Below are positions 2,740 to 37,074 of a stretch of 64,000 nt of DNA, one piece after another (the first letter of the stretch is position 1; each line of letters opens with the position of its first letter). The stretch is from an uncultured Clostridia bacterium. GTDB taxonomy: Bacteria > Bacillota > Clostridia > Oscillospirales > Acutalibacteraceae. The stretch spans positions 7,290 through 71,289 of the forward strand of contig CAMHKB010000001.1 of NCBI GenBank assembly GCA_946185555.1. The letters run 5' to 3'. Both the position numbers and the translations under genes were made by a program. Under the pieces are notes generated by a model. That model ran no database searches and was not told the DNA's origin. It saw nothing but the letters and a program-made list of their open reading frames with translations.

Positions 2740-3351
2740 TTATTTCTTTCCCTCAGGTTCAGCCGGTGAAGCCTGACTGCTGTTTTCAGCCGGGGTCTGT
2801 TCCGGCTCAGTTTTTACATCAGGCTTTACGTCAGGTTTTACACCAGCGTCCTTTTTTTCCGGTACTTCAGGAGGAGATACCATAACAACATCCTCCTCTT
2901 CATCATTTTCCTCTGCTATCATTTCATAATAGTCAAATTCATCTGCTATTCCGAGAAACTCCTTGAACATATGGTATCTGTATTCCGCCCTTATCATGAC
3001 GGCAACACAGTAAAGAATAGAAATCACCCACAAAACAAGAAATTCTATCTTAGTATCAAGACTGAACATCAGCGCAAGGAAAATAATACCGGTTATAATA
3101 ATGACCAGTGCGCCGTATTTCCTGTAAGCAGTCCTTTTCTGTTTTGAGTTATTATACTCATCAAGCACCATAAGATATGTAAGATGCTCCCTTTCACTCT
3201 GAGACAAAGGAGGTATTGACATATCCTTGCTGTCATATTTTTCATGGAGCGCATCCATTTCGGATTTTTCGTTCGGTGTAAAGCTATCCTTATATTTAGA
3301 AATGTGATTTAAAATATAGGAGTAATCAGATTTCTTTTTTCTCAGCGACAT
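2740..3351 (-). CDS. hypothetical membrane protein with acidic / KPDV-repeat tail
   Basis: 203-aa ORF with two central hydrophobic helices (ALVIIITGIIFLALMF, FLVLWVISILYCVAVMI), then an acidic stretch and KPDVKPDVK low complexity. No family recognised. Confidence 0.5.
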   Translation of the reverse strand: MSLRKKKSDYSYILNHISKYKDSFTPNEKSEMDALHEKYDSKDMSIPPLSQSEREHLTYLMVLDEYNNSKQKRTAYRKYGALVIIITGIIFLALMFSLDTKIEFLVLWVISILYCVAVMIRAEYRYHMFKEFLGIADEFDYYEMIAEENDEEEDVVMVSPPEVPEKKDAGVKPDVKPDVKTEPEQTPAENSSQASPAEPEGKK

Positions 3352-3599
3352 ATTAAGCCTCCCTTACTATACCTTGCTCTAATCAGCATATGTATATTAT
3401 AAAGTTCTTTGTTACATCTGTCAAATAAATAAAAGGTCTTTTCTGACAATTCGATATTAATGGTGAAATGTTTCGTCATTAGCAACAAAACACCCCCAAA
3501 AAATGCAGCAAATATAACAAAGCCAACAAAAAACAGACAGGATGACCTTTCAGCCGATCTTGTCTGTTTTACGCTTTTATTCCCTGCTGTCTTCTTCAA
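3342..3599 (-). CDS. hypothetical small membrane protein
   Basis: 85-aa ORF with one TM helix (CLFFVGFVIFAAFFGGVLLLM). It overlaps its neighbours by 10 nt and 23 nt in operon-like fashion. No family recognised. Confidence 0.3.
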   Translation of the reverse strand: MKKTAGNKSVKQTRSAERSSCLFFVGFVIFAAFFGGVLLLMTKHFTINIELSEKTFYLFDRCNKELYNIHMLIRARYSKGGLICR

Positions 3600-3771
3600 G
3601 ATAATCTTCGTAGTAATTATACTCGTCTATATGCTCGTTATTTGTCTTTCCGTTTGAAGCAAAGGCAAGATAATCCTCTGACGTATCAAATTCATCATCA
3701 GAAGCAGCATAGTCAATGTTCTCCGGATCTAATGTTTCTCCGTGCAGCTTTTTATTTTTCATTTTCCTCAC
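3577..3771 (-). CDS. hypothetical small acidic protein
   Basis: 64-aa Asp/Glu/Tyr-rich ORF, first of three overlapping small ORFs upstream of yhgE. No family recognised. Confidence 0.3.
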   Translation of the reverse strand: MRKMKNKKLHGETLDPENIDYAASDDEFDTSEDYLAFASNGKTNNEHIDEYNYYEDYLEEDSRE

Positions 3772-3831
3772 CAGTTATATTATGCCCGGAGAAAAGCATT
3801 TAATACCTATAGCCGTCAGTTATAAGTTGGA

Positions 3832-3880
3832 AGTTGGAAGTTATCAGTTATAAGTAAAATGTAACTGACAACTTCCAACT
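3832..3880 (-). repeat. GT-rich/AC-rich low-complexity hairpin just 3-prime of metA
   Basis: AGTTGGAAGTTATCAGTTA (3832-3850) pairs with TAACTGACAACTTCCAACT (3862-3880), 18 of 19 positions. It begins 4 nt after the metA stop, and no U-tract follows. Confidence 0.65.
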
Positions 3881-3884
3881 GTTA

Positions 3885-4826
3885 TTATACTTCTTCATCA
3901 AATCCCTTGATATCTGATATATCATAAGGCGTCTGCTGGTATACATAATAGTTCAGCCAGTTTGAATACAATATAGTCGCATAGCTTCTCCATGTAAGGT
4001 TAGGCAGTGCTCTGGGATCATTTCCGGGGAAATAGTTATACGGAAGAGGAGGCTCTATACCTTTATTTCTATCACGGAAATATTCGTTTGCAAGGGTATT
4101 CCTGTCATATTCCGCATGACCGGTAACAAAAAACTGTCTTCCGTTTTTATTTGCGACGATCGCAACGCCTGCTATATTTGAAGAAGCAAGAATTTCAAGC
4201 TCATTATGCTCCCGGATATCAGAACGGTGATTTCCGGTATATCTTGAATGCGGCAGAAGTATTTTATCGTCAAATCCTCTCATAAGCGGATGAAAGGCAT
4301 TCATGACCCTGTGGACATATACGCCTGAAAGCTTTTCGTCAAGCTCAAACTTCGGCACTCCGTAATGATAATAAAGCCCTGCCTGCGCTCCCCAGCAGAT
4401 GTGGAACGTGCTGTAAACATTTGTCTTCGACCATTCCATGATACTGCAAAGCTCCTGCCAGTAGTCAACCTCTTCAAACTCCATCTGTTCTACAGGCGCG
4501 CCTGTGATTATCATGCCGTCATAGCGGTTGTCCTTCACCTGATCGAAGGTCTGGTAAAATGCTGTCAGATGATCTGCCGGAGTATTCTTGTTTTTCGATA
4601 CATGTGTCGCCATTTGCAGAAGCTCAATATCCACCTGGAGAGGACTGTTTCCAAGAAGCCTGAGAAGCTGAGTCTCCGTTTCAATCTTATTAGGCATAAG
4701 ATTGAGTATAAGAATCTTCAATGCTCTGATATCCTGAGACATTGCTCTCTCATCCGTCATTACGAAAATGTTTTCAGCTTCAAGCGTCTTATAGGCCGGA
4801 AGCTGACTTTGAATTTTGATTGGCAT
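3885..4826 (-). CDS. metA: homoserine O-acyltransferase (MetA type)
   Basis: 313-aa [26 protein letters not shown]...[10 protein letters not shown]...[15 protein letters not shown]. This is the full-length MetA/HTS pattern. Confidence 0.9.
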
Positions 4827-4892
4827 ACTAAATTACTTCTTTCTTTTTATTCTTTCCTTTTGTAAAAATATTTGTATATATTGTAGCTAAAT

Positions 4893-5999
4893 TTAATCAA
4901 GAAAATCCTTGAGCTTTTTGCTGCGGCTGGGGTGACGGAGCTTGCGAAGGGCTTTAGCTTCTATCTGCCGGATTCGTTCTCTTGTTACGCTGAACTCTTC
5001 CCCAACCTCTTCAAGAGTTCTTGCACGCCCGTCATCAAGACCGAAACGAAGTCTGAGTACCTTTGCTTCCCTTGGAGTAAGAGTATTGAGTACATCATTA
5101 AGCTGCTCCTTAAGAAGTGTATTTGAAGCTGCGTCCTGAGGTGCAGGCGCGTCATCATCGGGAATGAAATCGCCTAAATGACTGTCTTCCTCTTCACCGA
5201 TCGGCGTTTCAAGGGATACAGGCTCCTGAGACACACGCATTATCTCCCTGACTTTTTCAGCCGGCATTTTCAGATATTCAGCTATTTCCTCCGCTGTCGG
5301 TTCGTGACCTGTTATATGAAGAAGCTGGCTTGACGCTTTCTTTACCTTGTTTATGGTCTCAACCATATGTACAGGTATTCTTATCGTCCTTGCCTGATCT
5401 GCTATGGCACGGGTTATCGCCTGACGTATCCACCATGTAGCGTATGTTGAAAACTTGAATCCTTTTGTATGGTCGAATTTTTCGACTGCCTTTATTAGTC
5501 CTAAATTGCCCTCCTGAATGAGATCGAGAAACTGCATACCTCTTCCAAGATAACGCTTGGCTATACTTACCACCAGTCTGAGGTTGGCTTCAGACAGTCT
5601 TTGTTTCGCCGCTACCTCGCCTCTTGAAATACGTTTGGCAAGATCAGTCTCTTCATCGCCGGTAAGCAGCGGCACTCTGCCTATTTCTTTAAGATAGATT
5701 TTTACCGGATCATCTATAGTTACGCCCTCGGAACTATCGAAACCGTCGTCAGACATACCCTCATTTTCCGCTATAGAAGAAAGCTCGCTGTCGTCAAGAA
5801 TGATATCGTCAAGTGTTTCCACGATCTCTATGCCGTTTGTTTCCAAAGAATCATAGAACCGCTCCATTGCCTCAGCATCAATATCCATTTCTCCTATAGC
5901 ATCAAGTATTTCCTTATTACTAAGATGTCCTTTTGTTTTTCCTAATTCTGTCAGTTCCTTGAGTACTGATTTTCTTTCCGGCTGTACCATATTTGCCAT
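4893..5999 (-). CDS. rpoD: RNA polymerase primary sigma factor, copy 1
   Basis: 368 aa with all sigma-70 regions present: [12 protein letters not shown] (1.2), [18 protein letters not shown] (2.2), [20 protein letters not shown] (2.3/2.4) and [22 protein letters not shown] (4.2). Confidence 0.9.
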
Positions 6000-6060
6000 A
6001 AGTTTATTCCTCCCGAATATTATATATGCCTTCCTTTGTCATAAACAAAGCTATGTTGGA

Positions 6061-7083
6061 TCACCCATTCTGTCCGCCGAGATGCTTCATGGCAGACTGT
6101 TCAAGCTTTTCAGTTTCCTCTATAGTCATTCCCAGCTTTTCTGAGATTTCATCTGCTGACAGCGGCTTCTCATTTTCAAGTCCGAATTTCAGCTTTATCA
6201 GCTTTGCTTCCTCCGGTGACAATACTGCAAGCATCTGTGCCACCTGAGCTGACATTATTCTTTCCTCTTCTGTTTTTTCCGCGCCGGCTTCATCATCTTC
6301 TTCGTCATCGTTTTTATTTATAAGTGAAACAAGCTTTTTCACTTTTTCCTCACTCAGTCCGGTTTCTGCGGAAATATCATCAAGTGAAGGTTTCTTTCCT
6401 TCTGACAGCATTTTCCTGTAAGTGCTGACAGCTTTTGAAAAATCCTCTGCCTGTGATGCCGGAATTTTCAGGGGCTGTTCGCTAGCCTGCGTCATCTTCT
6501 CCATCATCCTGCATATCTTCCATGCGCAGAAAGCAGAAAAACTCAGTCTTGTATCAGTCCAGCTGTCTGCCTCTGTCATAAGGACAAGATTTCCCTCCTG
6601 CACAAGGTCAAGAAAAAGCACACCCTTACCTATATATTTTTCCGCTGCCATAACAGGAACATACAGGCAGCCTTCTATAAGTCTGTTCTTTGCATCCTCG
6701 CTGCCATCCTCGATCTCGTAAAGAAGCTCCCGCTCCGTTGTGCTGTCAAGCCTTTCAAGCCGTGCTGTTTCCTTAAGATAAAGTACTACAGAATTTTCTG
6801 CACCTGTAACAGCCTTTCTTTCGTCTTCACATGATTCCTTTATCTTTTTATCCAGGCTTTTTATGCTTTCATCATTCAAAAAATAATTGCTGTAGAAGCT
6901 TACAGCGTTATCCGCAAGTATGCTTAATATTTCTTTTACCGCATCATCATCAAAATCATATTCCGACAGTCTCATCATTTCATCAACGCTGAGCATATCT
7001 CCGTTTACAGCCGCATTTGAAATAAGTCCTACTGCCGCTGTGTCAATAGCTATTCTTTTGCTCTTCATTCTTTCCTTCTCCAT
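6061..7083 (-). CDS. divergent sigma-70-derived protein (DNA-contact motifs degenerate)
   Basis: 340 aa, colinear with the flanking RpoD copies: VLYLKETARLERL (1.2-like), LDLVQEGNLVLM (2.2-like), FSAFCAWKICRMMEKM in place of [16 protein letters not shown], and MTIEETEKLEQSAMKHL in place of [17 protein letters not shown]. The start lies 2 nt after the upstream rpoD stop. Confidence 0.7.
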   Translation of the reverse strand: MEKERMKSKRIAIDTAAVGLISNAAVNGDMLSVDEMMRLSEYDFDDDAVKEILSILADNAVSFYSNYFLNDESIKSLDKKIKESCEDERKAVTGAENSVVLYLKETARLERLDSTTERELLYEIEDGSEDAKNRLIEGCLYVPVMAAEKYIGKGVLFLDLVQEGNLVLMTEADSWTDTRLSFSAFCAWKICRMMEKMTQASEQPLKIPASQAEDFSKAVSTYRKMLSEGKKPSLDDISAETGLSEEKVKKLVSLINKNDDEEDDEAGAEKTEEERIMSAQVAQMLAVLSPEEAKLIKLKFGLENEKPLSADEISEKLGMTIEETEKLEQSAMKHLGGQNG

Positions 7084-7085
7084 AA

Positions 7086-8171
7086 TTATTTAAGCTTTTT
7101 GCTTCTGCTCGGATGGCGAAGCTTTCTCAGCGCCTTTGCCTCGATCTGACGTATTCTTTCCCTTGTTACGTCAAATTCCTCTCCTACCTCTTCAAGAGTT
7201 CTAGGACGTCCGTCGTCAAGACCAAATCTGAGACGTATTACCTTTTCTTCTCTTGGTGTAAGAGTAGACAGAACAGAATTGAGCTGTTCCTTTAACATTG
7301 CCTGAAGTGCCGCTTCCTGCGGAGTCAATGTGCTCTCATCAGGAATGAAGTCACCCAAATGGCTGTCCTCTTCCTCACCTATTGGTGTTTCAAGGGATAC
7401 AGGCTCCTGTGAAGCCCTCATTGCCTCTTTTATCTTATCCGGGGACATACCTAAATAATCTGCTATATCCTCTGCTGATGGCTCGTGACCGTTCTCATGA
7501 AGCAGCTGTATAGACGCTTTCTTTATTTTGCTGATAGTTTCACCCATATGAACGGGAATACGTATTGTCCTCGACTGATCTGCTATGGCTCTGGTTATCG
7601 CCTGTCTTATCCACCATGTAGCATAGGTTGAAAATTTGAAGCCCTTTGTATGATCGAACTTTTCCACTGCCTTCATCAAACCGAGGTTTCCTTCCTGAAT
7701 CAGATCAAGCAGCTGCATTCCTCTGCCGAGATAACGCTTTGCTATGCTTACAACAAGACGAAGGTTTGCTTCTACAAGACGCTTTTTTGCCTCCTCGTCC
7801 CCTTCAAGGATTTTTTCAGCAACGTCTGATTCTTCACCGGGACTAAGCAGAGGAACCCTTCCTATTTCTTTCAGATATATCCTGACAGGATCATCTGTAC
7901 TTACTGCGGAATCCGGAACGATAAATTCTTCGTCCTCATTTTCCGACAATGTCTGAAGCTCCGGGTCTTCAAGCATAATATCGTCTATCGAATCAACGAT
8001 CTCAACTCCGCTTGATTCAAGCATATTATAAAAGCTTTCCATCTGATCCGGTTCTATATCTATCTCAACCGTTGCGTCAAATATTTCCTTGCTTGTGATC
8101 TGACCTTTATTCTTGCCTATTTCCAGCAGATCCCCCAAGACATTTTTCTTATCCGTTTGCTGATTATTCAT
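7086..8171 (-). CDS. rpoD: RNA polymerase primary sigma factor, copy 2
   Basis: 361 aa. It shares long identical runs with copy 1 ([58 protein letters not shown]). All sigma-70 regions are intact. Confidence 0.9.
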
Positions 8172-8246
8172 ACATTCCCTCCTGTATATTTCATTGCCTC
8201 ATCTTTTTTTATAAGCTCAGAGCTTGTGCTTTTTATTTGTAATTAA

Positions 8247-8325
8247 TAAGTTGTCAGTTATAAGCTGTCAGTTATAAGTTTTGGGTTAACTCAAGCTTAC
8301 AACTTATAACTCATAACTTACAACT
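8247..8325 (-). repeat. GT-rich/AC-rich low-complexity hairpin between dnaG and rpoD copy 2
   Basis: The left arm TAAGTTGTCAGTTATAAGCTGTCAGTTATAAGTT faces the right arm AAGCTTACAACTTATAACTCATAACTTACAACT. AGTTATAAGTT (8270-8280) pairs perfectly with AACTTATAACT (8303-8313), and a second imperfect helix lies outside it. Confidence 0.65.
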
Positions 8326-8333
8326 ACTAAAAG

Positions 8334-10130
8334 CTATTTTTTCTTTTCTCTCATTCTGCGGAGCTGTTCCATGATAGTGTCGTTATCCGCTGCCGCTGCC
8401 TGAGCCGGAGTAAGCTTATTTTTTTGTTCTGTAAGAATATTGATATATCCGCGCGCCGACTCAGAGGGTGTACTATCACGGGGGTGGGAAGTCATCATAG
8501 CCGCAAGACGTCCCATTTCGCTTGCAGTGAAATCACCGGAAATATCCGTTATTGATACATCCTTGCCCTCATTTATTCTTTTTCTGAGTACCTCATAAAT
8601 ATGTCTGTTGAAATTTGTAACAAAAGTTTCCGGCGAAAGCGTACCGGCTATTTCAACCGCTGTATCAGGCTCATACAGCATGATAGATATGATCGCCTCC
8701 TCAGCGTTTGCCGCACGGAGATTGAATTTCTTTTCAGGATTCAGCTTATCAGCCGCCGCAGAAAGATCAGTCTGCGCCTTTCGCTGCTGTACCTTTTTGT
8801 TTTCAAAGGAGCTGTACTTGTTATTCTTTTCTACAAGCCGTTTCAGGGATGTTTTTTCTATTTCAAGCTCCTTTGCAATACGGCTTATGTACACATCCTG
8901 TTCAACAGGATTTTCTATGCCGGCAATCAGATATGCAGCCTTTGTGGCAAAATCCACCTTCTGCTCCGGTATTTCTAAATTGTACCGTCCCCGAAGCTTC
9001 ATAAGCCTGTATTCTATGTCATTACCCGATTTTTCAAGAAGCATACGAAATCTTGCGCTGCCCTGGTCGCCGTGTGATTTTATAAATTCATCAGGGTCTT
9101 TTCCGTTTGGTACAGTCAGCACCCTTATCTTTATGCCGGTAGGTCTGAGAATGTTTATAGCGCGCTGTGTAGCTTTCTGCCCGGCTTCATCAGCGTCATA
9201 GCAGATAACAACCTCATCGCAGTATTTCTTTATTATCATCGCCTGATCCTCTGTAAGCGCTGTCCCGAGAGTGGCTACAGCGTTTTCAAAACCTGCCTGA
9301 TGAAGCGCTATAACATCCATGTATCCCTCAACAAGTATAAGCTGTCTTTTGGGATCATTTTTCGCGAATTTCAGGGCAAACAGGTTTTTGCTCTTGTTGA
9401 ATACAGGTGTATCAGATGTGTTAAGATATTTGGGCTTTCCATCTGACATCAACCTTCCGCCGAACGCAATAACCTTTCCCTTCACATCAATTATCGGAAA
9501 CATTACACGATCGGAGAATCTGTCAAAAGCATATCCCTTATCAGACTGATTCGCAAGGTTTGCCTGTATCATTTCATATTTGGTAAATCCCTTCGACTTA
9601 AGATGATTTACAAGCTCAAATCTGTCACGGGGAGAGTAACCAAGTCCGAAATGTATAATGGTTTTTTCTGTAAGTCCTCTGCCCCTCAGATAATCAAGTG
9701 CCTGCTTACCGGCTGGTGAGTAAAGCTGACGGTGGAAAAATCTTGCCGCCTCACGATTCGCTTCATATATCCGCATTCTGAGCTTTGCCATACCGTCAGA
9801 AATATCATTTTCCGGAACAGTCATTCCAGCCCTATCCGCAAGAAACTTTACAGCATCAACATAGTCAAGATTTTCGATCTTCATTATGAATGTAATAACG
9901 TCTCCGCCGACGCCGCACCCGAAGCAATGGAAAAATCCGTTCTCTCTTGATACGCTGAAGGAAGGCGATCTCTCATTATGGAACGGACACAGCCCCATAA
10001 GATTTCTTCCTGATCTTTTCAGCTGAACATAAGAAGATATCACATCCGCTATATCTGTTCTTGACTTTAGTTCCTGTTTAAATTCCTCTGTAATTGCCAA
10101 TACACCGCATCTCCTTTTATTACAGACCAA
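8334..10130 (-). CDS. dnaG: DNA primase
   Basis: 598 aa with the zinc ribbon CPFHNERSPSFSV...FHCFGCG, a TOPRIM segment (LVEGYMDVIAL, ICYDADEAGQKAT) and a C-terminal helper domain. The real start may be the TTG at 10100 (MAITEEFKQ...). Confidence 0.9.
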   Translation of the reverse strand: MVCNKRRCGVLAITEEFKQELKSRTDIADVISSYVQLKRSGRNLMGLCPFHNERSPSFSVSRENGFFHCFGCGVGGDVITFIMKIENLDYVDAVKFLADRAGMTVPENDISDGMAKLRMRIYEANREAARFFHRQLYSPAGKQALDYLRGRGLTEKTIIHFGLGYSPRDRFELVNHLKSKGFTKYEMIQANLANQSDKGYAFDRFSDRVMFPIIDVKGKVIAFGGRLMSDGKPKYLNTSDTPVFNKSKNLFALKFAKNDPKRQLILVEGYMDVIALHQAGFENAVATLGTALTEDQAMIIKKYCDEVVICYDADEAGQKATQRAINILRPTGIKIRVLTVPNGKDPDEFIKSHGDQGSARFRMLLEKSGNDIEYRLMKLRGRYNLEIPEQKVDFATKAAYLIAGIENPVEQDVYISRIAKELEIEKTSLKRLVEKNNKYSSFENKKVQQRKAQTDLSAAADKLNPEKKFNLRAANAEEAIISIMLYEPDTAVEIAGTLSPETFVTNFNRHIYEVLRKRINEGKDVSITDISGDFTASEMGRLAAMMTSHPRDSTPSESARGYINILTEQKNKLTPAQAAAADNDTIMEQLRRMREKKK

Positions 10131-10139
10131 ACAAACATG

Positions 10140-11156
10140 TTAAACGCTTCCGCGGTTCATATATATAAACGGTTTAGGTATGTACAGCTCCTTGAACTTT
10201 TCGACAGCATATCTGTCAGTCATTCCTGCAAGATAGTCACAGACTGCGGTCTGAGTACCCTCAGCTGTAACCGTATGTCTGTTTTCAGAGGGCATTTCAA
10301 GGGGATGCTTCAAAAAATATTCATACAGAAATCCGATAAAATCAGGAACCTTTCTTTCTTCATGCTTTGCATATTCATTAGAATACACTACCGCATACAT
10401 GAACCTGTGAAGTCTGTCGAATACCCCCTGCACCTCATCATCCATGCAAAGTACACCGTCCCTTGAATTTGAAACAAGGGATATGACAAGAGTATTTATT
10501 CTGTCAGAGGTTTTATGTCCGAGAACCTTCCCCACCTCTGTCGGAAGCTCATCCTCTGATATAACTCCTGCCCTCACTGCATCGTCAATATCATGGTTGA
10601 TATAGGCTATCCTGTCAGCTATGCGAACTATTCTTCCTTCAACTGTATCAGCTTCTCTGCCTTTGGTATGGCATACTATACCGTTTCTTGTTTCATATGT
10701 AAGGTTCAGACCTCTGCCGTCCTTTTCAAGCTTATCAACAACCCTGAGACTTTGTTCATAATGTCTGAAACCTCCGGGTACAAGAGAATCAAGCGCACGT
10801 TCTCCTGCATGGCCGAACGGTGTATGTCCCAGATCGTGCCCCAGAGCCACTGCCTCCGTCAGGTCCTCATTTACCCTCAGCGCCCTTGCTATAGTTCTTG
10901 CTATCTGCGACACTTCAAGAGTATGGGTAAGACGTGTACGGTAATGATCTCCCTCAGGGGATAAAAAAACCTGTGTCTTATGCTTAAGACGCCGGAAGGA
11001 TTTGCAGTGTATTATTCTGTCGCGATCACGCTGAAGCTCTGTGCGTATACTGCATTTTTCTTCATATATACCTCTGCCCTTTGTTGAATCAGAAAAACAG
11101 GCAAAATCAGAAAAATACAATTTTTCATTTTTTTCTGTAACTTCTCTTATATTCAT
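10140..11156 (-). CDS. dgt: dGTP triphosphohydrolase-like HD-domain protein
   Basis: HD motifs RLTHTLEVSQIAR and GHDLGHTPFGHAGE are present. I place the start at the ATG at 11156 (MNIREV...), preceded by AAGGGGGTG, rather than at the ORF-track start at 11189. Confidence 0.85.
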   Translation of the reverse strand: MNIREVTEKNEKLYFSDFACFSDSTKGRGIYEEKCSIRTELQRDRDRIIHCKSFRRLKHKTQVFLSPEGDHYRTRLTHTLEVSQIARTIARALRVNEDLTEAVALGHDLGHTPFGHAGERALDSLVPGGFRHYEQSLRVVDKLEKDGRGLNLTYETRNGIVCHTKGREADTVEGRIVRIADRIAYINHDIDDAVRAGVISEDELPTEVGKVLGHKTSDRINTLVISLVSNSRDGVLCMDDEVQGVFDRLHRFMYAVVYSNEYAKHEERKVPDFIGFLYEYFLKHPLEMPSENRHTVTAEGTQTAVCDYLAGMTDRYAVEKFKELYIPKPFIYMNRGSV

Positions 11157-11268
11157 CGGTTTCACCCCCTTGACCCGCAATATTTGCAATTATTTTTTGG
11201 ATCGCTGTAGTATCAATCTCAGCTTCTATTTATAAATGGGCAAATCTGACAAATTGCACAAATCATAT

Positions 11269-11356
11269 GTCATTCTGAGGAGCGACAGCGGCGAAGAATC
11301 TTTTCGATAATGCTGTTTTAGTGGAAAAGATCCTTCGCTTACGCTAAGGATGACAG
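11269..11356. repeat. short hairpin form of the modular repeat
   Basis: GTCATTCTGAGGAGCGACAGCGGCGAAGAATCTTTT ... AAAAGATCCTTCGCTTACGCTAAGGATGACAGG. The two arms are imperfectly complementary over about 30 nt. Confidence 0.7.
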
Positions 11357-11491
11357 GTTGGGTATGATATAGAAGACAATATTATTGTGCATAATCACGA
11401 ACAATTATTAATTTGCTCATTTATAGCTTCTATATTAATTATACGCACAAAAAAGGATTATACCTTTTTTTCTTTTTCAGATTTTAGTATA

Positions 11492-12112
11492 TCAGCAGGC
11501 AAAATAATCTTCACCCGTTATTTCTGTTTCAACCGTTGCCCCTGTAGCATCTGCTAAGGACCGGGAAAAACCGCCCATATCCTCAGGTGCTATATGAAAA
11601 TCTATAGTTACATTTTCTCCGAACCCAATATCATCTATTTCTCCGCCGCATGACGGAATAAGCCCTGACAATTTTCCATACTGATTATAACTGCATACTA
11701 TTCTGCATTTATGGCATTTCTTCATTGTGATGATATTTCCGGCTTCAAGGGCAATTTTTGCGGACCTTGTGTATGCCCTGACAAGACCGCCTGCCCCCAA
11801 CAGAATACCGCCGAAATATCTTGTCACAACCACAGCGGCATCTGTCACTCCTGATTTCACAATTACATCAAGAACAGGTACTCCAGCCGTTCCATGAGGT
11901 TCTCCGTCATCGCTGTATCTCTGCACTCCGCTGTCCCTGAGAACATACGCATATACATTATGCCTTGCGTCCCAGTGCTGTTTCTTCTTTTCTTCAATAA
12001 ACATCAGAGCCTCCTCCTCAGTTTTAACAGGACGCACATAGCCTATGAATCTTGATCTCTGCTCTGTAAATTCATCCTGCGCTTCTTTTCTGACAGTTTT
12101 GTATTCATCCAT
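11492..12112 (-). CDS. yigZ: YigZ/IMPACT-family protein
   Basis: RSRFIGY...YSDDGEPHGTAGVPVL...VVVTRYFGGILLGAGGL is the UPF0029/IMPACT signature. The likely start is MDEYKT at 12112. Confidence 0.8.
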   Translation of the reverse strand: MDEYKTVRKEAQDEFTEQRSRFIGYVRPVKTEEEALMFIEEKKKQHWDARHNVYAYVLRDSGVQRYSDDGEPHGTAGVPVLDVIVKSGVTDAAVVVTRYFGGILLGAGGLVRAYTRSAKIALEAGNIITMKKCHKCRIVCSYNQYGKLSGLIPSCGGEIDDIGFGENVTIDFHIAPEDMGGFSRSLADATGATVETEITGEDYFAC

Positions 12113-14206: not shown

Positions 14207-14282
14207 ATATTATCACTCCAAAATAAATATCAGCGGTCATACAAAAATCGTATGCCGCTGAATATGAAAATATGCCATTTTA

Positions 14283-14382
14283 GCTCAGAGCTAAGAGTGC
14301 AGAGTTCAGAGAATTATCTTTTCAATTATGCTGCTTTCGTGGTAAAGATCCTTCGCTTACGCTCAGTATGACAGCGTGAGAG
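14283..14382. repeat. mosaic copy of the modular repeat, left of hicAB
   Basis: GCTCAGAGCTAAGAGTGCAGAGTTCAGAG (end module, reverse orientation) + CTTTTCAATTATGCTGCTTTCGTGG + AAAGATCCTTCGCTTACGCTCAGTATGACAGCGTGAGAG. Confidence 0.7.
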
Positions 14383-15272: not shown

Positions 15273-15370
15273 GCTGCTCAGAATGACAAATGAGGAAACA
15301 CTTTAAAACAACTAAAGAAGAAAAAAGCCTGATACTACAAGCTCTAAGCTCTGAGCCATTAACTCTGAGC
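15273..15370. repeat. right-half copy of the modular repeat, right of hicAB
   Basis: GCTGCTCAGAATGACAAATGAGG ... AAGAAAAAAGCCTGATAC ... AAGCTCTAAGCTCTGAGCCATTAACTCTGAGC matches the right half of copies A and B. Confidence 0.7.
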
Positions 15371-25729: not shown

Positions 25730-28700
25730 TCACTTAACTGTCAGCGTGAAATCCCTAGAAACAACGCTTCCGCTGTTATCCTTTACGTTGATTCTGAGGC
25801 TGTAGGTGCCGGCAGCTTTAGGTGTATATTTGCATGAAGTATTTGAACTATATGCAGATCCGTCAATAACCATAAGCTTCTCCCATGAAGTTGCTGACGC
25901 TTTCTTGTAGTAATAAGCATACAGATAGGGGCTTGTACCGCCGCTTGCCTTACCATTAAGAGTAACTGGTGTGTTAGCCGATACACTTGTAGAGCTTACA
26001 GTAGAGCTGTTTGTTAGAGAAGCAGATGATGCCTTTACTGTAAGTGTAAACTCCTTGGAAACAACCTGACCTTCGCCGTACTGATCCTTGACGTTGATTC
26101 TTACATCGTACGTTCCGGCTGATGTAGGCTTGAAGGTTACGGAATCATACTTTGTATATGCAGAACCGCTTGATGTAACGTACGCCTTTGTCCATGAGCT
26201 GTCAGTTGACTTCTTATAGTAGTAAGCGTACTTGTAGGGGCTTGTACCGCCTGCTCCAACACCTGTCAGAGTAACTGTTGTGTTTGCTGTAACACTTGTC
26301 GCACTGATCTTTGAATTATTTGTAAGAGCTGTTCCGCCCGTTGCTTTTACAGTAAATTCCTTGGATGCAACTGTTCCGGCTGTATCCTTAACATTTACCT
26401 TCAGGTTATATGTACCTGCTGCTGTAGGAGTAAACTTGTAGGATGTATTTGTTACATATACAGAGCCGTTAGAATTTGAAAGCTTTGTCCATGTGCTGTC
26501 GGTTGACTTCTTGTAGTAGTAGCCGTACTTATAAGAGCTTGAACCGCCGCTTGCCTTTGCTGTAATTGTTACAGCAGAGTTAACTGCTACGCTTGTTGAG
26601 CTTACTGTTGAGCTGTTTATAAGATCTGCGCCGGTAGCCTTTACCTGGAGTTCCTTAGAAGCAATTGCGCCGGAATCATCCTTGACATTGACTTTAATAT
26701 TATAAGTACCTGCTGTTGTCGGTTTGAACTGATATGATGTATTTGTTACATATACAGAACCGTTAGAATTTGAAAGCTTTGTCCATGTGCTGTCGGTTGA
26801 CTTCTTATAGTAGTAGCCGTACTTATAAGGAGTTGAACCGCCTGTTGCCTTGGCTGTAATTGTAACAGCAGAGTTAACTGCTACGCTTGCTGCGCTGATT
26901 GTTGAGTTGTTTGCAAGAGGTGAACCGTTTGCTGTTACCTCAAATTCCTTCTGAACAATTGTACCCTCTGAATCCTTGACATTGATCTTAAGGTTGTAGG
27001 TACCTGCCGCCTTAGGTGTGAATGTATATGATGTATCGCTTACATATACAGAACCGTTAGTTTCAGAAAGCTTTGTCCATGTGCTGTCGGTTGACTTCTT
27101 GCAGTAGTAGCCGTACTTATAAGGAGCTGTACCGCCGCTTGCTGAGCCTGACATTACAACATTGTTGTTTACATCAACTGTCTGAGCACTGATGGTTGAG
27201 TTGTTCTTGAGAGCGCCTGTACAAACTACTGTAAATTCCTTAGAAACTACTGTACCTTCGCTGTCCTTAACGCTTACTTTTGCAATATATTCGCCGTCAG
27301 CGGCAGGCTTGAATGTTCCTGTTGTAGCTGAGCCGAATGCTGTTCCTATAGTTGTCCATGAGCTTGCGGAAGCCTTCTTATAGTAGAAAGCATACTTATA
27401 CGGACTTGAGCCGCTGCTTGCCTTACCTGTCATCTTAACATCTGTATTAAGCTTGACATTTGTAGCACTTATTATAGAATCATTTGAAAGGTCTGTTGAA
27501 CCGCATACTTCACAAACCTTTATAGTTTTACCGCTTGCATTTGTTACAGTCTTCCATGTGTGGTCAGACTTCGGGATAGCTGCTGTGAATGTTGTTCCGC
27601 ATATATTACACTTATACTGTGCTTCGCCTTCTTCAGAGCAGGTAGCCTCTTTGATGGTCTTTGTAATCGTCTTATCACCGTGCTTGCAGAATATATCAAA
27701 AGATACTGTTGTATTGCCGTTATAGTTTCCTTTACCGGTAATTTTAACATTGCTTGTGCCGGGCTTCTTGTTTGTTGTTGCATAAGTAAGAGTATAATCT
27801 GTACCCTCCGCAAGCTTGTAGCCCTTATAATAAACAACAACTTCCGGCTTAACACCTGTGGTCTTGTTATCCATAGTAAGTTCCTGATCAGGAATATTTC
27901 TGACGATAACCTCAGGATCGGATACCGGTCTTGCAGTGATCTGTATCTTCTTTGTTACCTTTGAGTTGTACTTGCCCATACCTATTACTTCAATAGTAAC
28001 ATATTCGCCGACTGTGTTATTATCTGTGTATGTAACCTCATAATCTTTGCCCTCTACGAGGCTGACATTAACTGTGGTGGAATGACCCAGAATATCAGTT
28101 TCTGTATAGCTGTATGCTACACTTACAGAAGGTCTGTAAACCTGTAATGTAGGATCATATGTTGCAGATCCGTAAATAACGGTCGCACTTCCGAGAGCAT
28201 ATTCTACAGAAACATGGCAAACATCCGTCTTATTGCCTGATTTAACTGTAATATTACAGTCGCCGAGTGCATGACCAGTAACCTTACCTGTTGAATCTAC
28301 TGTAGCTATATTTTCATCGCTTGATGACCATTCAAGATTAACGCCCGATACAGCAGTATCAGATTCGTTATATACAGTTGCACTCAGAGTTTCAGTCGCA
28401 GTCATTGTATTCTTTGCGAGTGTTATTGTAAGATCCGGAAGGGATCCGTCCGTCTTTGTTACAAGCTTACTGCCCTTAAGTACTACAGATGAGGTAGTAA
28501 AGCCAACAAGTGTGGTTGTTGCAGTCTTGCCTGATTCAGCAGTTGCAGTAAGAACAGCCTTACCGTTTCCTACTATCTTTACAAAGCCATCGTCAGTTAC
28601 CTGTGCAACAGCTGTATTGTTTGACTTCCAGTGAGCTACTCTGTCATCATGATCATAAGGCTGGTTTGTAGATATCTTCAGATCTCCGTCCAGAGAAAGT

Positions 28701-30556
28701 GTTGAACCAACATTAAGATTCTTCTTATAGCTTGTATCTCTTGCAACAGCGTCAACTATCGTAAAGCTTGTTGCTCTTTTAAGGACATTAAGATCAAAAA
28801 GTTTGGAGATAGTAGGATTGTTTTTAGAGCTTACCTTTACCTGAACGCTTCCTCTTGCAAATCCTTTAAGAGTAAGAGCTGTTGCTGTTTCGCTTACAAT
28901 AGTAACATAATCGCCATTGTTAGCGCCGTTTCCTAAAACCTCCCAGACCATAGTATCGTCCGGTGTAGAGCCGTCTAATGCAACAAGAGCACCGGTAAAT
29001 GTTATATTATTCTGGTCAAACACCTCTACAACAGAGCCGTTATATACATTAACAATATTGTCATCCTTAGCATATGTAACAGATATCTCCGCAGATTCTG
29101 TCTTCTTAACAACATTTACAGTGATCTTAGCCTCAACGCCTGAGTTCTTAGCTTTTGCCGTAATTACAGCTGTTCCGACTTTAACACCAGTAACAGCAGC
29201 AGTCTGGCTGTTAGTAAACTTGCCGTTTACAAGCGACTCAACTGTTGCAACAGAAGTATTGGAGGAAGACCATATGATCTCTTCATCTGCTGTGTCAGGA
29301 TTCATTTTTGCAGTCAGTACAGTCTGTCCGTCAACCTTTGTAGATGGAGTGCCTGTGATCTTGATAGACTGTGCCTTTGTGAGAACCTTTATATCCACCT
29401 CAGCGTGAACATTTTCATTCTCAGCAGTAATTGTGATCTTAGCATCGCCCTTGCCTACTGCCTGAATGTTGCCCTCATCATCAACAGTAACAACCTTAGA
29501 GTTACTTGTAGACCATGTAAAAACGTCAGTTGCGCCGGATTCATAGCCTGCGCCTGAATATGCTGCATCGCTCTCGAAAGCAAGCTTCATCTTGTCTCCT
29601 ACTTCCATTGCGGAAGGAGCATTCTTTATTGCAAGACCCGTAGCCGGGTTTTCCTTAACTATTGTTACATGAAGGAACTTCGGAACGCTCTGAACATCTG
29701 CATCTTCCCCGTCAACCTTTCTGGTTGTGAAACTCTTTTCCTTCTTGGAAGTAGAAGTTTTCTTATACTTCGTAACTATTGTCACTTCGCCGTTTGTCTT
29801 AGGAGTGAAAAGACCTGTCTGTGTAATTTCGGCCTTGCTTGTAGTTTTTCCTGTAGAAGTCCCATCGTAGTATCCGTCATAAACAGCCCACTCGACCTCA
29901 TCAGTAGAAGACGACGGAATTCTTTCTGCATCAAACTGATACTTGTGGTTAGCTATAGTCATAATACTTGCTGAAATAATGGGGTTGTTATCCTTATCCT
30001 TAAGCTCAGTTTTACCCTTGTTCGTGACCCAGAATACCTTCATATCTGTTGCCGGTTCAAGTGTGACTATAGTTACGGAACGATAAACCTCACCGCCTGC
30101 TGTTGTGAAGTAGATATGGCTTGTACCGGCCTTTCTTGACGCACCCTCGCCGTCATATCCGTTAACTGTAACCTCCAGCTCGCCTGGTTTTTTCATCGAA
30201 TAAGAGCTGTATTTTTCGCCATCGCTGTCGCCCTCATAGAAGCAGCGGATCTGATCCTCTACAGCTGCGCCGTTATCATTGCTTGCCACAACAGTAAATT
30301 TTCTTGAAGTGATGTTATCCTTGTTTGCCCTGTTGTTATCAACATAGAAAACAGCGTTGTCGCCAAGGTCTTTTCCATTTTCATCAAGAACCTTCAGCTT
30401 TGTTGCAACAGCAGAAGCTGCGCTTGCAACAATACCCGTCTGCGATGTACCCACAGCCATCTCTGCCACTGCGCCCGGAACAAGAACAGCCGCAGCCGAA
30501 AGTACTGCAAGAACCTTGAGTGCTGCACGGCGGGTACGTGTTTTTGAAATTTGCAT
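25730..30556 (-). CDS. large secreted surface protein: multiple Big_2-like Ig domains, a Cys-rich module, six C-terminal triple-tyrosine (Y_Y_Y-like) repeats
   Basis: 1608 aa. There is a signal peptide (RRAALKVLAVLSAAAVLVPGAVA). Repeated ...W.SSN..VATVD..G.V.A...G.A.ITA... units are Big_2-like. Six roughly 92-102 aa repeats each carry GG.SPYKY.YYYKK....W and AGTY...INVKD. Confidence 0.8.
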   Translation of the reverse strand: MQISKTRTRRAALKVLAVLSAAAVLVPGAVAEMAVGTSQTGIVASAASAVATKLKVLDENGKDLGDNAVFYVDNNRANKDNITSRKFTVVASNDNGAAVEDQIRCFYEGDSDGEKYSSYSMKKPGELEVTVNGYDGEGASRKAGTSHIYFTTAGGEVYRSVTIVTLEPATDMKVFWVTNKGKTELKDKDNNPIISASIMTIANHKYQFDAERIPSSSTDEVEWAVYDGYYDGTSTGKTTSKAEITQTGLFTPKTNGEVTIVTKYKKTSTSKKEKSFTTRKVDGEDADVQSVPKFLHVTIVKENPATGLAIKNAPSAMEVGDKMKLAFESDAAYSGAGYESGATDVFTWSTSNSKVVTVDDEGNIQAVGKGDAKITITAENENVHAEVDIKVLTKAQSIKITGTPSTKVDGQTVLTAKMNPDTADEEIIWSSSNTSVATVESLVNGKFTNSQTAAVTGVKVGTAVITAKAKNSGVEAKITVNVVKKTESAEISVTYAKDDNIVNVYNGSVVEVFDQNNITFTGALVALDGSTPDDTMVWEVLGNGANNGDYVTIVSETATALTLKGFARGSVQVKVSSKNNPTISKLFDLNVLKRATSFTIVDAVARDTSYKKNLNVGSTLSLDGDLKISTNQPYDHDDRVAHWKSNNTAVAQVTDDGFVKIVGNGKAVLTATAESGKTATTTLVGFTTSSVVLKGSKLVTKTDGSLPDLTITLAKNTMTATETLSATVYNESDTAVSGVNLEWSSSDENIATVDSTGKVTGHALGDCNITVKSGNKTDVCHVSVEYALGSATVIYGSATYDPTLQVYRPSVSVAYSYTETDILGHSTTVNVSLVEGKDYEVTYTDNNTVGEYVTIEVIGMGKYNSKVTKKIQITARPVSDPEVIVRNIPDQELTMDNKTTGVKPEVVVYYKGYKLAEGTDYTLTYATTNKKPGTSNVKITGKGNYNGNTTVSFDIFCKHGDKTITKTIKEATCSEEGEAQYKCNICGTTFTAAIPKSDHTWKTVTNASGKTIKVCEVCGSTDLSNDSIISATNVKLNTDVKMTGKASSGSSPYKYAFYYKKASASSWTTIGTAFGSATTGTFKPAADGEYIAKVSVKDSEGTVVSKEFTVVCTGALKNNSTISAQTVDVNNNVVMSGSASGGTAPYKYGYYCKKSTDSTWTKLSETNGSVYVSDTSYTFTPKAAGTYNLKINVKDSEGTIVQKEFEVTANGSPLANNSTISAASVAVNSAVTITAKATGGSTPYKYGYYYKKSTDSTWTKLSNSNGSVYVTNTSYQFKPTTAGTYNIKVNVKDDSGAIASKELQVKATGADLINSSTVSSTSVAVNSAVTITAKASGGSSSYKYGYYYKKSTDSTWTKLSNSNGSVYVTNTSYKFTPTAAGTYNLKVNVKDTAGTVASKEFTVKATGGTALTNNSKISATSVTANTTVTLTGVGAGGTSPYKYAYYYKKSTDSSWTKAYVTSSGSAYTKYDSVTFKPTSAGTYDVRINVKDQYGEGQVVSKEFTLTVKASSASLTNSSTVSSTSVSANTPVTLNGKASGGTSPYLYAYYYKKASATSWEKLMVIDGSAYSSNTSCKYTPKAAGTYSLRINVKDNSGSVVSRDFTLTVK
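25733..27490 (-). repeat. six in-frame tandem coding repeats (276-306 nt units) at the 3-prime end of the surface-protein gene
   Basis: Unit boundaries by my count are 25733-26026, 26027-26332, 26333-26629, 26630-26923, 26924-27214 and 27215-27490. Units 3 and 4 share long near-identical DNA runs (compare 26450-26530 with 26750-26830). Confidence 0.8.
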
Positions 30557-34905: not shown

Positions 34906-35589
34906 TCACTGTTCAGATTGAATTTCATCAATTCCATTTGCAAGAAAGGCGGCTCTTCTGTCACGGCACGTACCGCATTTTCCGCACGGAACACTTCCTC
35001 CGGAATAGCAGCTCCATGTCATATGATACGGCACATTGAGGCTTAACCCTTCCCTGACAACACCGGCTTTGTTCATCCCCACAAAGGGAGCGATAACCTC
35101 AATTTCATTTCCGCTGCCTATGTATACAGCCCGGGAAATAGCGTCGTTAAATTCCTTGCTGCAATCAGGATAGGCATTTCCGGCAGCATCATCGCTGTGC
35201 GCGCCGTAATACAGATATTTGCATCCGCTTGCGCCTGCAATGCTTGCCGCACAGGACAGAAAAAGACCGTTTCTGAAAGGTACGTAGGTTGAAACCGGCT
35301 TGCCGTCTGTTTTTTTCAGCTGCTCGCTGTAATCCTCCTCCGGTATATCATTACCGGAAGATATCAGCAGGGACGAATCAGAGCCTTCAAATATTTTAGT
35401 CAGATCAAGCTCTCTATGCACTACTCCGTAATATGCGGCAATATCTCTTGCCGCCTGTATCTCCCTGTAATGCTTTTGTCCGTAAAAAACAGACAGAGCC
35501 ATCACCTCATCCTTTCCGAATTTATCTACAGCTATTGCAAGACAGGTAGTACTGTCTACTCCTCCGCTTAGCAGCACCAGTGCTTTCAT
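34906..35589 (-). CDS. queC: 7-cyano-7-deazaguanine synthase
   Basis: MKALVLLSGGVDSTTC (PP-loop) and the C-terminal zinc site WSCY...CGKCGTCRDR. Confidence 0.9.
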   Translation of the reverse strand: MKALVLLSGGVDSTTCLAIAVDKFGKDEVMALSVFYGQKHYREIQAARDIAAYYGVVHRELDLTKIFEGSDSSLLISSGNDIPEEDYSEQLKKTDGKPVSTYVPFRNGLFLSCAASIAGASGCKYLYYGAHSDDAAGNAYPDCSKEFNDAISRAVYIGSGNEIEVIAPFVGMNKAGVVREGLSLNVPYHMTWSCYSGGSVPCGKCGTCRDRRAAFLANGIDEIQSEQ

Positions 35590-35600
35590 CCTTCAACATC

Positions 35601-35697
35601 TCCCTTAAACAGTTTTCAGTTGTAAGTCAACAGTTGCCAGCTGCCAGTTTAAAGCAATTTACATCCGGCTACAACTTACAACTTACAACTTACGACT
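35601..35697 (-). repeat. GT-rich/AC-rich low-complexity hairpin between queDE and queC
   Basis: CAGTTTTCAGTTGTAAGTCAACAGTTGCCAGCTGCCAGTT ... CTACAACTTACAACTTACAACTTACGACTTATAACTT. AGTTGTAAGT is complementary to ACTTACAACT. Confidence 0.6.
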
Positions 35698-35710
35698 TAT
35701 AACTTAAATA

Positions 35711-36867: not shown

Positions 36868-36901
36868 AAGCTCAGAGCTAAGAGTGCAGAGTTCAGAGCT
36901 T
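36868..36901. repeat. isolated end module of the repeat (reverse orientation), hairpin plus T7 on the plus strand
   Basis: AAGCTCAGAGCTAAGAGTGCAGAGTTCAGAGCTT followed by GTTTTTTT. AAGCTCAGA and TCAGAGCTT can pair with one mismatch. It lies in the leader of queDE. Confidence 0.6.
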
Positions 36902-37074
36902 GTTTTTTTCGTATTAACGGTTTGTCTTTTATTTAATTAACTCTCGTCCAAGAAAATGCTTGGATTATTTATCTCCTATCGAAATTCTTTCTAAAAAGTG
37001 TTGCACTTGACTTGACAATTTAGCGTGCCGAGCGCAGCGAGGCGGAGGGGTTCACCAAGCTTACAACTTATAAC

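Follow-up and report, generated by a model that had tools for sequence, protein, structure and literature searches.

Introduction

The usual picture of bacteria is one of a single essential primary sigma factor, with sigma competition credited to alternative sigmas that differ in promoter specificity. This work concerns a locus in a 64,000-nucleotide (64-kb) stretch of DNA from an uncultured Clostridia bacterium (hereafter the window), in which three sigma-related genes stand in tandem within 3.3 kb downstream of dnaG; we call them P (the dnaG-proximal rpoD), M (the middle, sigma-like gene) and D (the distal rpoD). The closest described case is that of C. difficile, where sigA1 (CD1455) lies directly after dnaG (CD1454), the second gene, sigA2, has a SigH-type promoter, and SigA1 and SigA2 have been assigned to exponential and stationary phase, respectively (PMC7438776; bioRxiv 10.1101/2021.06.06.447298). 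The present locus resembles this pair in that the genome holds two full-length SigA paralogues, one of them directly after dnaG. A preliminary description of the window had called the presence of two housekeeping sigmas unusual; the two-SigA precedent of C. difficile (PMC7438776) tempers that statement, though the pair is not in tandem there. The C. difficile genes are ~43 genes apart, whereas here the two copies are in tandem with a degenerate third copy between them, and, unlike in the C. difficile pair, it is the dnaG-adjacent copy that is derived and the distal copy that is canonical.

Two other kinds of system invite comparison. Group 2 sigmas are paralogues of the primary sigma that read similar promoters, are kept for regulatory specialisation and are defined as lacking region 1.1 (PMC4598750); in contrast to such sigmas (those of cyanobacteria, Streptomyces HrdA, C and D, and E. 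coli RpoS), P has region 1.1. In Bacillus subtilis, SigO and RsoA are sigma-related polypeptides of adjacent genes that are thought to act jointly on RNA polymerase (PMC10141391). The adjacency of genes for sigma-related polypeptides is common to both cases, but in SigO and RsoA the sigma domains are shared out over two small proteins that make up one sigma jointly, whereas P and D are complete and M in its long form extends from region 1.1 to 4.2. A literature search, the coverage of which did not extend to subscription journals, turned up no account of the arrangement under tandem duplication of rpoD, sigA paralogues in Ruminococcus or sigmas without region 4. We are nearly certain that the locus reflects an ancient and conserved triplication that left three constrained genes, with D ancestral-like, P derived and M degenerate at its DNA contacts. 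What M might do is a question on which we offer a more tentative proposal below.

Results

The sigma genes downstream of dnaG

The locus consists of the following features, given with their coordinates in the window; aa stands for amino acids, ORF for open reading frame and RBS for ribosome-binding site.

4893-5999, minus strand: D, distal RpoD/SigA, full-length, 368 aa; passes the NCBIfam RpoD equivalog model
6000-6060, minus strand: M-D spacer, 61 nt, with a candidate D promoter and RBS
6061-7083, minus strand: M, fast-evolving SigA-derived protein, 340-aa ORF; assigned by alignment to SigA, narrow family
7086-8171, minus strand: P, dnaG-proximal RpoD/SigA paralogue, full-length, 361 aa; five sigma-70 Pfam regions
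8172-8333, minus strand: dnaG-P spacer, 162 nt, with an AT-rich hairpin and the palindrome AAGCTCTGAGCTT at 8212-8224
8334-10130, minus strand: dnaG, DNA primase; Pfam Zn_ribbon_DnaG, DNAG_N, Toprim and DnaB_bind
10140-11189, minus strand: dgt-like HD phosphohydrolase; Pfam HD and HD_assoc; opens the conserved dgt-dnaG-sigma block

The ORF coordinates, the strand and the 162-nt and 61-nt spacers of the preliminary description were all exact. Two start codons deserve comment. The dgt-like gene precedes dnaG in all related loci, and because its orthologues are 331-335 aa long, an internal ATG is the probable true start of this gene. The first ATG of the M ORF lies two bases past the P stop codon (TAATTATG), and a second ATG at 7068, which would give a protein of 335 aa, has an RBS, being preceded by GGAGAAGGA; as other gene calls, those of the 335-aa close relatives P0001 and P0002, use this same start, M probably begins at 7068. 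The DnaG of the window is 65-78% identical to its orthologues from genomes carrying the three sigma genes.

Distribution of the arrangement

M belongs to a small and well-separated family. Searched against 5.8 billion proteins, M had 10 close clusters at 37-99% identity, followed by ordinary RpoDs at E ~1e-28, and a profile search covering all of 1.84 billion representatives at 50% identity gave ~12 M-family members scoring 233-528 bits, below which generic sigmas plateaued at <=210 bits. Among 185,579 species-representative genomes (GTDB species representatives), M is present in 15 (L007-L021). All the carriers are uncultured; their metagenome-assembled genomes, named as 'Ruminococcus sp.' or Clostridia, come from the rumen of cattle and roe deer and from rabbit gut. 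Wherever the contig was long enough, these 15 have dgt-dnaG-P-M-D in the same order and on the same strand, and the same order was seen in L001-L006, L087 and L089. Just outside the clade, in L092, L093 and L023, the rpmE-Impact-dgt-dnaG neighbourhood known from the clade is followed by a single D-type rpoD. The search of related genomes for the triple arrangement, a check named in the preliminary description, thus found it throughout the M-carrying clade and not as a peculiarity of one strain; the arrangement is an old, fixed, lineage-specific feature.

One related contig, L088 (ERZ914857 scaffold_46994), has after dnaG a single rpoD (2785-3885) that is a P-front/D-back chimera: it is P-type at 8/8 diagnostic positions up to residue 133, D-type at 11/12 from residue 210, and retains the DFLD tail of D. 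The contig is of low quality and its dnaG is frameshifted. Either a genuine crossover between P and D deleted M, or this rpoD was joined in assembly; being chimeric, it was rejected as a P-like single-copy outgroup.

Divergence of P and D and selection on the three genes

P and D are 72% identical as proteins over 365 aligned residues and 70% identical as DNA, and the longest exact word common to the two genes is 23 nt. Between them the proportion of differing synonymous sites (pS) is 0.74, which is saturated, and that of nonsynonymous sites (pN) is 0.18, giving a ratio of nonsynonymous to synonymous rates (dN/dS) of ~0.07. The two long identical peptides pointed out in the preliminary description do occur in both P and D, and the DNA beneath them differs at 12/99 and 12/75 bases. 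Because synonymous sites are saturated and because the arrangement is common to at least 17 genomes from independent assemblies, the duplication is old, as had been thought. Synonymous saturation together with the low dN/dS also argues that the pair is not a repeat of the kind that assembly creates. The chance that the tandem copies arose in assembly or by duplication in a single strain appears to us negligible: we found nothing in favour of it, the related case of L088, the only one, being a chimera on a low-quality contig, and against it stand the 70% DNA identity of the copies with no common word longer than 23 nt, and the same order of genes assembled independently in many studies and from many hosts.

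The divergence between P and D is unevenly spread. It peaks over residues 1-120 (pN 0.28-0.29) and 281-320 (pN 0.26). By region, the differences fall in 1.1, the linker from 1.1 to 1.2, 3.1 and 4.1; these stretches agree with the earlier placement of the divergence in the N-terminal region 1.1 and the region 3/4 linkers. Within the same genome, P and D are 99% identical in regions 2.3-2.4 and 94% identical in region 4.2.

Comparison of orthologues separates M from the other two genes. In the three least saturated pairs (dS 0.4-0.9), from which these ratios were taken, the dN/dS range is 0.02-0.04 in P and 0.03-0.05 in D, against 0.12-0.21 in M, and the mean pairwise protein identity across 16 genomes is 0.865, 0.859 and 0.392, respectively. 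The nonsynonymous rate of M is 5-6 times that of P or D. P and D therefore evolve at similar and low rates, which bears out the view that both copies are under purifying selection; relaxed selection on one of the two RpoD copies, an outcome against which they had been checked, is rejected, dN/dS being ~0.03 in both and neither showing any sign of it. A subtler asymmetry exists between sublineages. In the subclade of the window the p-distance is 0.128 for P vs 0.061 for D, and in the subclade of L001, L005, L011 and L012 it is 0.047 for P vs 0.127 for D; with DnaG controlled, the distances of P and those of D show a weak negative correlation (r = -0.26, one-sided p ~0.05). The reciprocal shift of constraint suggests that sublineages may differ in which of the two copies became the main sigma.

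Identity and polarity of P and D

In both P and D, regions 1.1, 1.2, 2, 3 and 4 all score above the curated Pfam cut-offs (for P, Sigma70_r1_1 reaches 44.3 bits vs a cut-off of 22.5). The two proteins part at the level of the full-length model: D, with 592.9 bits, passes the NCBIfam RpoD equivalog NF006666 (cut-off 572), P, with 546.7 bits, falls narrowly under it, and P passes the C-terminal domain model TIGR02393 (383.9 vs 354). P ends in ...SKKLK, without the canonical last four residues DFLD, and since ~64/~64 P-clade clusters end in SKKLK or SKKLKA, the loss of DFLD is clade-wide. The preliminary description of both RpoD copies as full length with every region intact therefore holds for the five Pfam regions and needs amending for the terminal DFLD of P. 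We may speculate that the missing tail marks the original boundary of the tandem duplication, a few codons before the rpoD stop.

D, in contrast, looks like SigA from elsewhere. Its identity to SigA proteins of genomes other than the triad ones is 81-85% (L092 and L093 were checked and are single-copy), and both D and these proteins end in KDFLD, with close variants among the latter. Of 20 columns diagnostic of P vs D, outgroups carry the D state at 15, and with a second outgroup tier added there are 10 fixed P-specific changes vs 4 D-specific ones. The fixed differences of P, besides the absent DFLD, lie in region 1.1, where L became F, in region 2.1, where S became V, and in regions 3.1, 3.2 and 4.1, and include a V to G change in region 3.0, between two extended -10 contact residues. 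The classical promoter-contact positions themselves, which we take to correspond to those of E. coli sigma-70, are occupied by the same canonical residues in P and D for the -10, extended -10 and -35 elements, including the H and E of RIPVHM.ET in region 3.0. The outgroup states, C-terminal ends, NF006666 scores and counts of fixed changes together mark D, as judged from its sequence, as the conservative, canonical and ancestral-like SigA orthologue, and P as a derived paralogue that apparently underwent a burst of change on its stem and was frozen afterwards. With region 1.1 above the Pfam cut-off and with DNA-contact regions that are essentially those of D, P would in structural terms be a second group 1 sigma and not a group 2 sigma.

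Origin of M and the surfaces it has kept and lost

The preliminary description had mentioned M as a sigma-like gene between the two RpoD copies; that it is sigma-like stands, but it was given too little weight, being a third, highly diverged copy and the more novel element of the locus. M is 29% identical to P, aligns over regions 1.1 to 4.2 with the solved Firmicute SigA chains 7ckq_F and 8x6f_E, and is covered by the NCBIfam RpoD model from residue 6 to 335, although at 128.2 bits vs the cut-off of 572. Among the Pfam models, Sigma70_r4 alone scores above its cut-off, r2 and r3 being under theirs. An AlphaFold (AF2) model built on the family alignment has a mean pLDDT, the confidence score of the method, of 80.8, and its matches in the Protein Data Bank (PDB) are sigma chains only. 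These SigA/RpoD alignments and the restriction of structural matches to sigmas identify M as a third copy of the primary sigma gene. The TM-scores of the Foldseek matches are 0.2-0.3 though the probability is 1.0, which we interpret as a domain packing of the free M model unlike that of holoenzyme-bound sigma. At 17 P/D diagnostic columns the states of M are mixed and point to neither P nor D as its parent copy.

The M ORF is unbroken in all the genomes examined and has ~45 invariant positions; to judge from these sequences, it is clearly a constrained gene under purifying selection. The distribution of this constraint is inverted relative to that of real SigA. Conservation within the M family is highest in region 2.2 (0.67, and 0.51 to D), followed by region 4.1 (0.55) and region 2.1 (0.51), and the region 2.2 motif LFLDLVQEGN is invariant or nearly so; where P and D are near-invariant, M is poorly conserved, with 0.38 in regions 2.3-2.4, 0.38 in region 3.0, 0.47 in region 4.2 and 0.19 in the region 3.2 finger. 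The DNA-contacting modules have lost their positive charge as well; the net value of +3 in regions 2.3-2.4 has dropped to -0.1, the +4 of region 3.0 to -1.2 and the +2.2 of region 4.2 to -3.6. At the canonical contact sites M reads SFSAFCAWKICRMMEK (-10), KIPASQAED (extended -10) and TIEETEKLEQSAMKHLG (-35), the last in place of the -35 recognition helix, and the canonical residues are not kept. The residues presumably equivalent to W434, Q437 and T440 in E. coli numbering are substituted, and the region 3.2 finger motif is absent. In the rabbit-gut genomes L020, L021 and L087, M stops after region 3.1 with no remnant of region 4 in the DNA; their relative L018 retains region 4.

From this pattern a family can be newly defined by sequence and context, consisting of SigA-derived proteins encoded between two SigA genes after dnaG, with L[FY]LDLVQEG invariant and with degenerate regions 2.4, 3.0, 3.2 and 4.2. 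The M of the window has these features, and the context holds in all members examined.

Could M nevertheless be a true alternative sigma with a new and fast-evolving promoter specificity, so that the locus would encode three working sigmas? The long forms of M keep all the sigma domains and the model folds as a sigma, the gene is under purifying selection, the aromatics of region 2.3 are partly kept, and regions 4.1 and 4.2 are moderately conserved (0.55 and 0.47). A working sigma would, however, be hard to reconcile with three DNA-contact modules that are neutral to acidic, the 4.2 recognition helix being acidic, with the loss of the -12 contact residues and the 3.2 finger, with the disappearance of region 4 from three lineages in which the M gene is still intact, and with the regions near-invariant in SigA being among the least conserved in M. 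On balance we regard a promoter-reading M as unlikely.

The opposite extreme, in which P and D are redundant copies maintained for dosage and M is a decaying relic without function, draws on the identity of the promoter-contact residues of P and D and on the great divergence of M. A relic is not what one expects of an ORF that is intact in all genomes examined, with dN/dS of 0.12-0.21 and ~45 invariant positions, nor redundancy of a P that has fixed, clade-wide derived characters and of constraint that shifts reciprocally between P and D from one subclade to another; this explanation we consider extremely improbable.

The fast evolution of M also raises the question of conflict with phages, in which P, without its C-terminal tail, might serve as a backup sigma resisting phage proteins targeted to region 4 of SigA, and M as a decoy that soaks them up. 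An arms race would explain a nonsynonymous rate 5-6 times that of P or D, the fixed changes of P include the C-terminal end of region 4, and proteins of the sigma-70 family do occur in defence systems, MzaA being an example and the only defence-library model of PADLOC matched by P, M and D. The MzaA matches involve generic sigma domains only and lie far under the cut-off of 800 bits of model NF041931 (D 364.7, P 360.4 and M 75.6); MzaA of the MZA anti-phage system is a protein of ~700 aa with an extra N-terminal part, and the present locus has no MZA gene context. With these scores and housekeeping neighbours, an identity of P, M or D with MzaA was rejected. Furthermore, no defence genes are nearby, the neighbourhood is a stable housekeeping one in every genome, and the dN/dS of M is well under 1, all of which make a role in phage conflict very improbable.

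Transcription architecture and the apparent coupling of M to P

The spacers on the two sides of M differ in character. Those between P and M are mostly 2-25 nt long and contain only an RBS; those between M and D are 24-273 nt long, have in L001, L011 and L007 GC-rich hairpins followed by T-runs that resemble terminators, and in the relatives often have a -10-like box just before a strong D RBS. In the window a candidate D promoter consists of TTGTTT (6048-6043), an 18-nt spacer and TATAAT (6024-6019), and the RBS is GGGAGG (6014-6009). Given the terminator-like hairpins in the M-D spacers of the relatives and the -10-like box before D, D probably has its own promoter. The same observations modify the earlier notion of one transcription unit: the genes are co-oriented as had been said, but D may well be transcribed separately.

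Evolutionary rates point in the same direction. With DnaG controlled, the divergence of M co-varies with that of P (partial Mantel r = 0.53, p = 0.0002) and shows no covariation with that of D (r = -0.01, p = 0.52). Together with the short P-M spacers and the hairpins and -10 boxes between M and D, this suggests a dnaG-P-M unit and a separately controlled D.

A coupling of this kind would also be expected if M acted on a sigma and not on the core, as a partner, chaperone or anti-sigma of sigma descent which, by binding P (or D) directly, would govern how much of it is available. M lies directly after P and both appeared together, its divergence co-varies with that of P only, and the clade-specific surface changes and truncated C-terminus of P could make up a dedicated interface. 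On the other hand, M is best conserved in the region 2.2 motif for the beta-prime clamp helices, which points to the core, and to our knowledge sigma-sigma heterodimers of this type are without precedent. We therefore hold a direct partner of P or D to be quite unlikely.

The dnaG-P spacer holds a hairpin with arms at 8234-8266 and 8294-8326 (RNA fold -36 to -39 kcal/mol). It is strain-specific, only the last ~75 nt before P being conserved in the closest relative, L089. The hairpin region (8234-8326) is AT-rich, imperfect, ~95 nt long and made of 14-nt units (CTTATAACTGACA), and is absent from L089. Units related to CTTATAACTGACA recur in a hairpin upstream of metA (HTS, 3885-4826) at 3814-3854 and upstream of a queD/queE fusion gene at ~37040-37080; allowing one mismatch, the unit motif has 5 matches vs 0.11 expected. 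These hairpins look like a small dispersed intergenic inverted-repeat element of the MITE or REP kind (miniature inverted-repeat transposable element or repetitive extragenic palindrome). The palindrome AAGCTCTGAGCTT of the same spacer was found at 187-197, 409-419, 8214-8224, 14282-14292, 15340-15370 and 36869-36900, mostly between the listed ORFs, and AGCTCTGAGC, with one mismatch allowed, has 19 matches vs 4.5 expected. The sequence just upstream of P (AAAAAGCACAAGCTCTGAGCTTATAAAAAAAGATGAGG) resembles that upstream of queD/queE and that upstream of P in L089; a common operator or promoter element is one possible explanation of the palindrome, a small repeat another.

Discussion

We propose that the primary sigma gene was triplicated downstream of dnaG in a clade of uncultured Ruminococcus-like Clostridia of rumen and gut and that the functions of the copies have diverged. 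In this scheme D would be the canonical housekeeping SigA, probably under its own promoter, and P would be a second full-length sigma of the group 1 type, co-transcribed with dnaG. Because the residues contacting the -10, extended -10 and -35 elements match, P would be expected to read the same class of promoters as D. Its own region 1.1 and linkers, the differences in regions 3.1 and 4.1, the V-to-G change and the missing DFLD make it probable that P differs from D in initiation kinetics or in interactions with regulators or partners, and not in promoter choice.

For M, we suppose that the protein retains the sigma fold and the core-binding surface of regions 2.1-2.2, with that of region 4.1 in addition in the long forms, and has lost the DNA-reading surfaces and the 3.2 finger. 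It may then bind the RNA polymerase core without directing promoter recognition, and in functional partnership with P might tune the sharing of core between P and D. Holoenzyme formation requires the contact that sigma region 2.2 makes with the beta-prime clamp helices (bioRxiv 10.1101/2021.06.06.447298), and with region 2.2 retained in M, core binding is the simplest reading. We would put the chance that the whole statement, that is, the triplication as described together with this mechanism, is right at roughly 0.5. Taken on its own, the mechanism proposed for M, a pseudo-sigma that would bind the core but not promoters and would tune the competition of P and D, stands somewhat short of even odds to at best even, the effect on sigma competition being what we infer from sequence. 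That M would found a new class of regulator, a 'pseudo-sigma' that sits on the core through region 2.2, with or without region 4.1 and the flap, and forms with P a switch partitioning the core between two primary sigmas of equal promoter specificity, is a more doubtful extension, which we put forward tentatively.

Such a role has partial parallels. E. coli Rsd and phage T4 AsiA modulate sigma competition; they are not sigma homologues, and they bind sigma region 4 and not the core. T4 gp55 is a truncated but working phage sigma that relies on a co-activator and the sliding clamp. The role proposed for M would be of this type in that it would change core occupancy without the reading of canonical promoters, and the short forms of M resemble a sigma reduced to its N-terminal domains. 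Unlike all three, M is a chromosomal descendant of SigA with intact regions 1.1 to 3.1.

Several points tell against parts of this scheme. What speaks for core binding by M is the retention of residues, from which the binding has been inferred, and the partial retention of the region 2.3 aromatics (F or Y at position 430, W or F at 433) leaves room for some contact of M with single-stranded DNA. A scan of 4700-11600 for consensus promoters and terminators gave no more sites than shuffled sequence; the -35 of the candidate D promoter is weak, with 3/6 matches, because of which the scan passed over it. The coupling of P and M is not universal, as in L005 and L015 a 437-nt insertion containing a repeat (3513-3949) parts the two genes, and the covariation of their rates could reflect a common recombination history of the P-M segment. 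The repeat of this insertion, ~400 bp long, occurs in several copies on the same contigs (L004 7683-8000, 3120-3567 and 10430-10834). In L004, M and D occur without P, joined to an unrelated PTS operon exactly at the ~400-bp repeat; since the homology with L005 starts at this repeat, inside the P-M spacer, L004 is uninformative as proof that M-D lives apart from P.

In a neighbour-joining (NJ) tree the P clade (97% bootstrap) and the D clade (86%) are not joined, the monophyly of P and D has 0% bootstrap, and other SigA proteins group with D. The failure of P and D to appear as sisters can be attributed to the 10 autapomorphies of P and the acceleration on its stem, and an older duplication was for this reason not read off the tree. 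The analysis of characters bearing on the timing of the duplication gave one character only for each alternative; a triplication at the base of the clade is compatible with this, and P may instead have come from an older duplication or from transfer. Lastly, the host organisms are all uncultured, and P, M and D are known from sequence alone. A connection with sporulation, raised in the preliminary description, draws no support from anything in the present analysis.

Irrespective of the details of the model, a whole clade of abundant, fibre-associated rumen and gut bacteria stably keeps two primary-type sigmas with the same promoter-reading residues, and along with them a third sigma descendant that is apparently stripped of DNA recognition. 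If M does bind the core, a housekeeping sigma would have evolved into a polymerase-binding regulator, and a new means of controlling global transcription capacity would be at hand. The expansion of sigma paralogues is known in kind; the type of sigma-derived regulator is possibly new. The 10 fixed changes and lost tail of P, and the kept and lost regions of M, constitute a natural experiment on which parts of SigA serve which job. In current annotations the triad is invisible, since pipelines name its genes generically: at least one P-clade and at least one D-clade protein are labelled RpoD, most members are unnamed, and none of the M clusters returned has a name.

Other features of the window

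Rfam at gathering thresholds gave no match in the whole 64-kb window, and a tRNA scan of the window found no tRNA genes. The queuosine operon at 34906-36844 begins with a queD-like PTPS (6-pyruvoyl-tetrahydropterin synthase) domain fused to a queE-like radical-SAM (S-adenosylmethionine) domain (35711-36844), followed by queC (34906-35589), and has a 230-nt leader (upstream to 37074) with no preQ1 riboswitch. Further features are the following.

2740-3351: ORF of 203 aa with no Pfam match, between an ABC-2 permease gene and metA
25730-30556: surface protein of 1608 aa, rich in Big_2/Ig-like domains
56703-60605: HD-GYP/PAS/GGDEF signalling protein of 1300 aa
61589-63772: ORF of 727 aa with no Pfam match

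In related loci an ORF of ~200 aa without Pfam match occupies the same place beside the ABC-2 permease gene (for example, L001 12921-13526).

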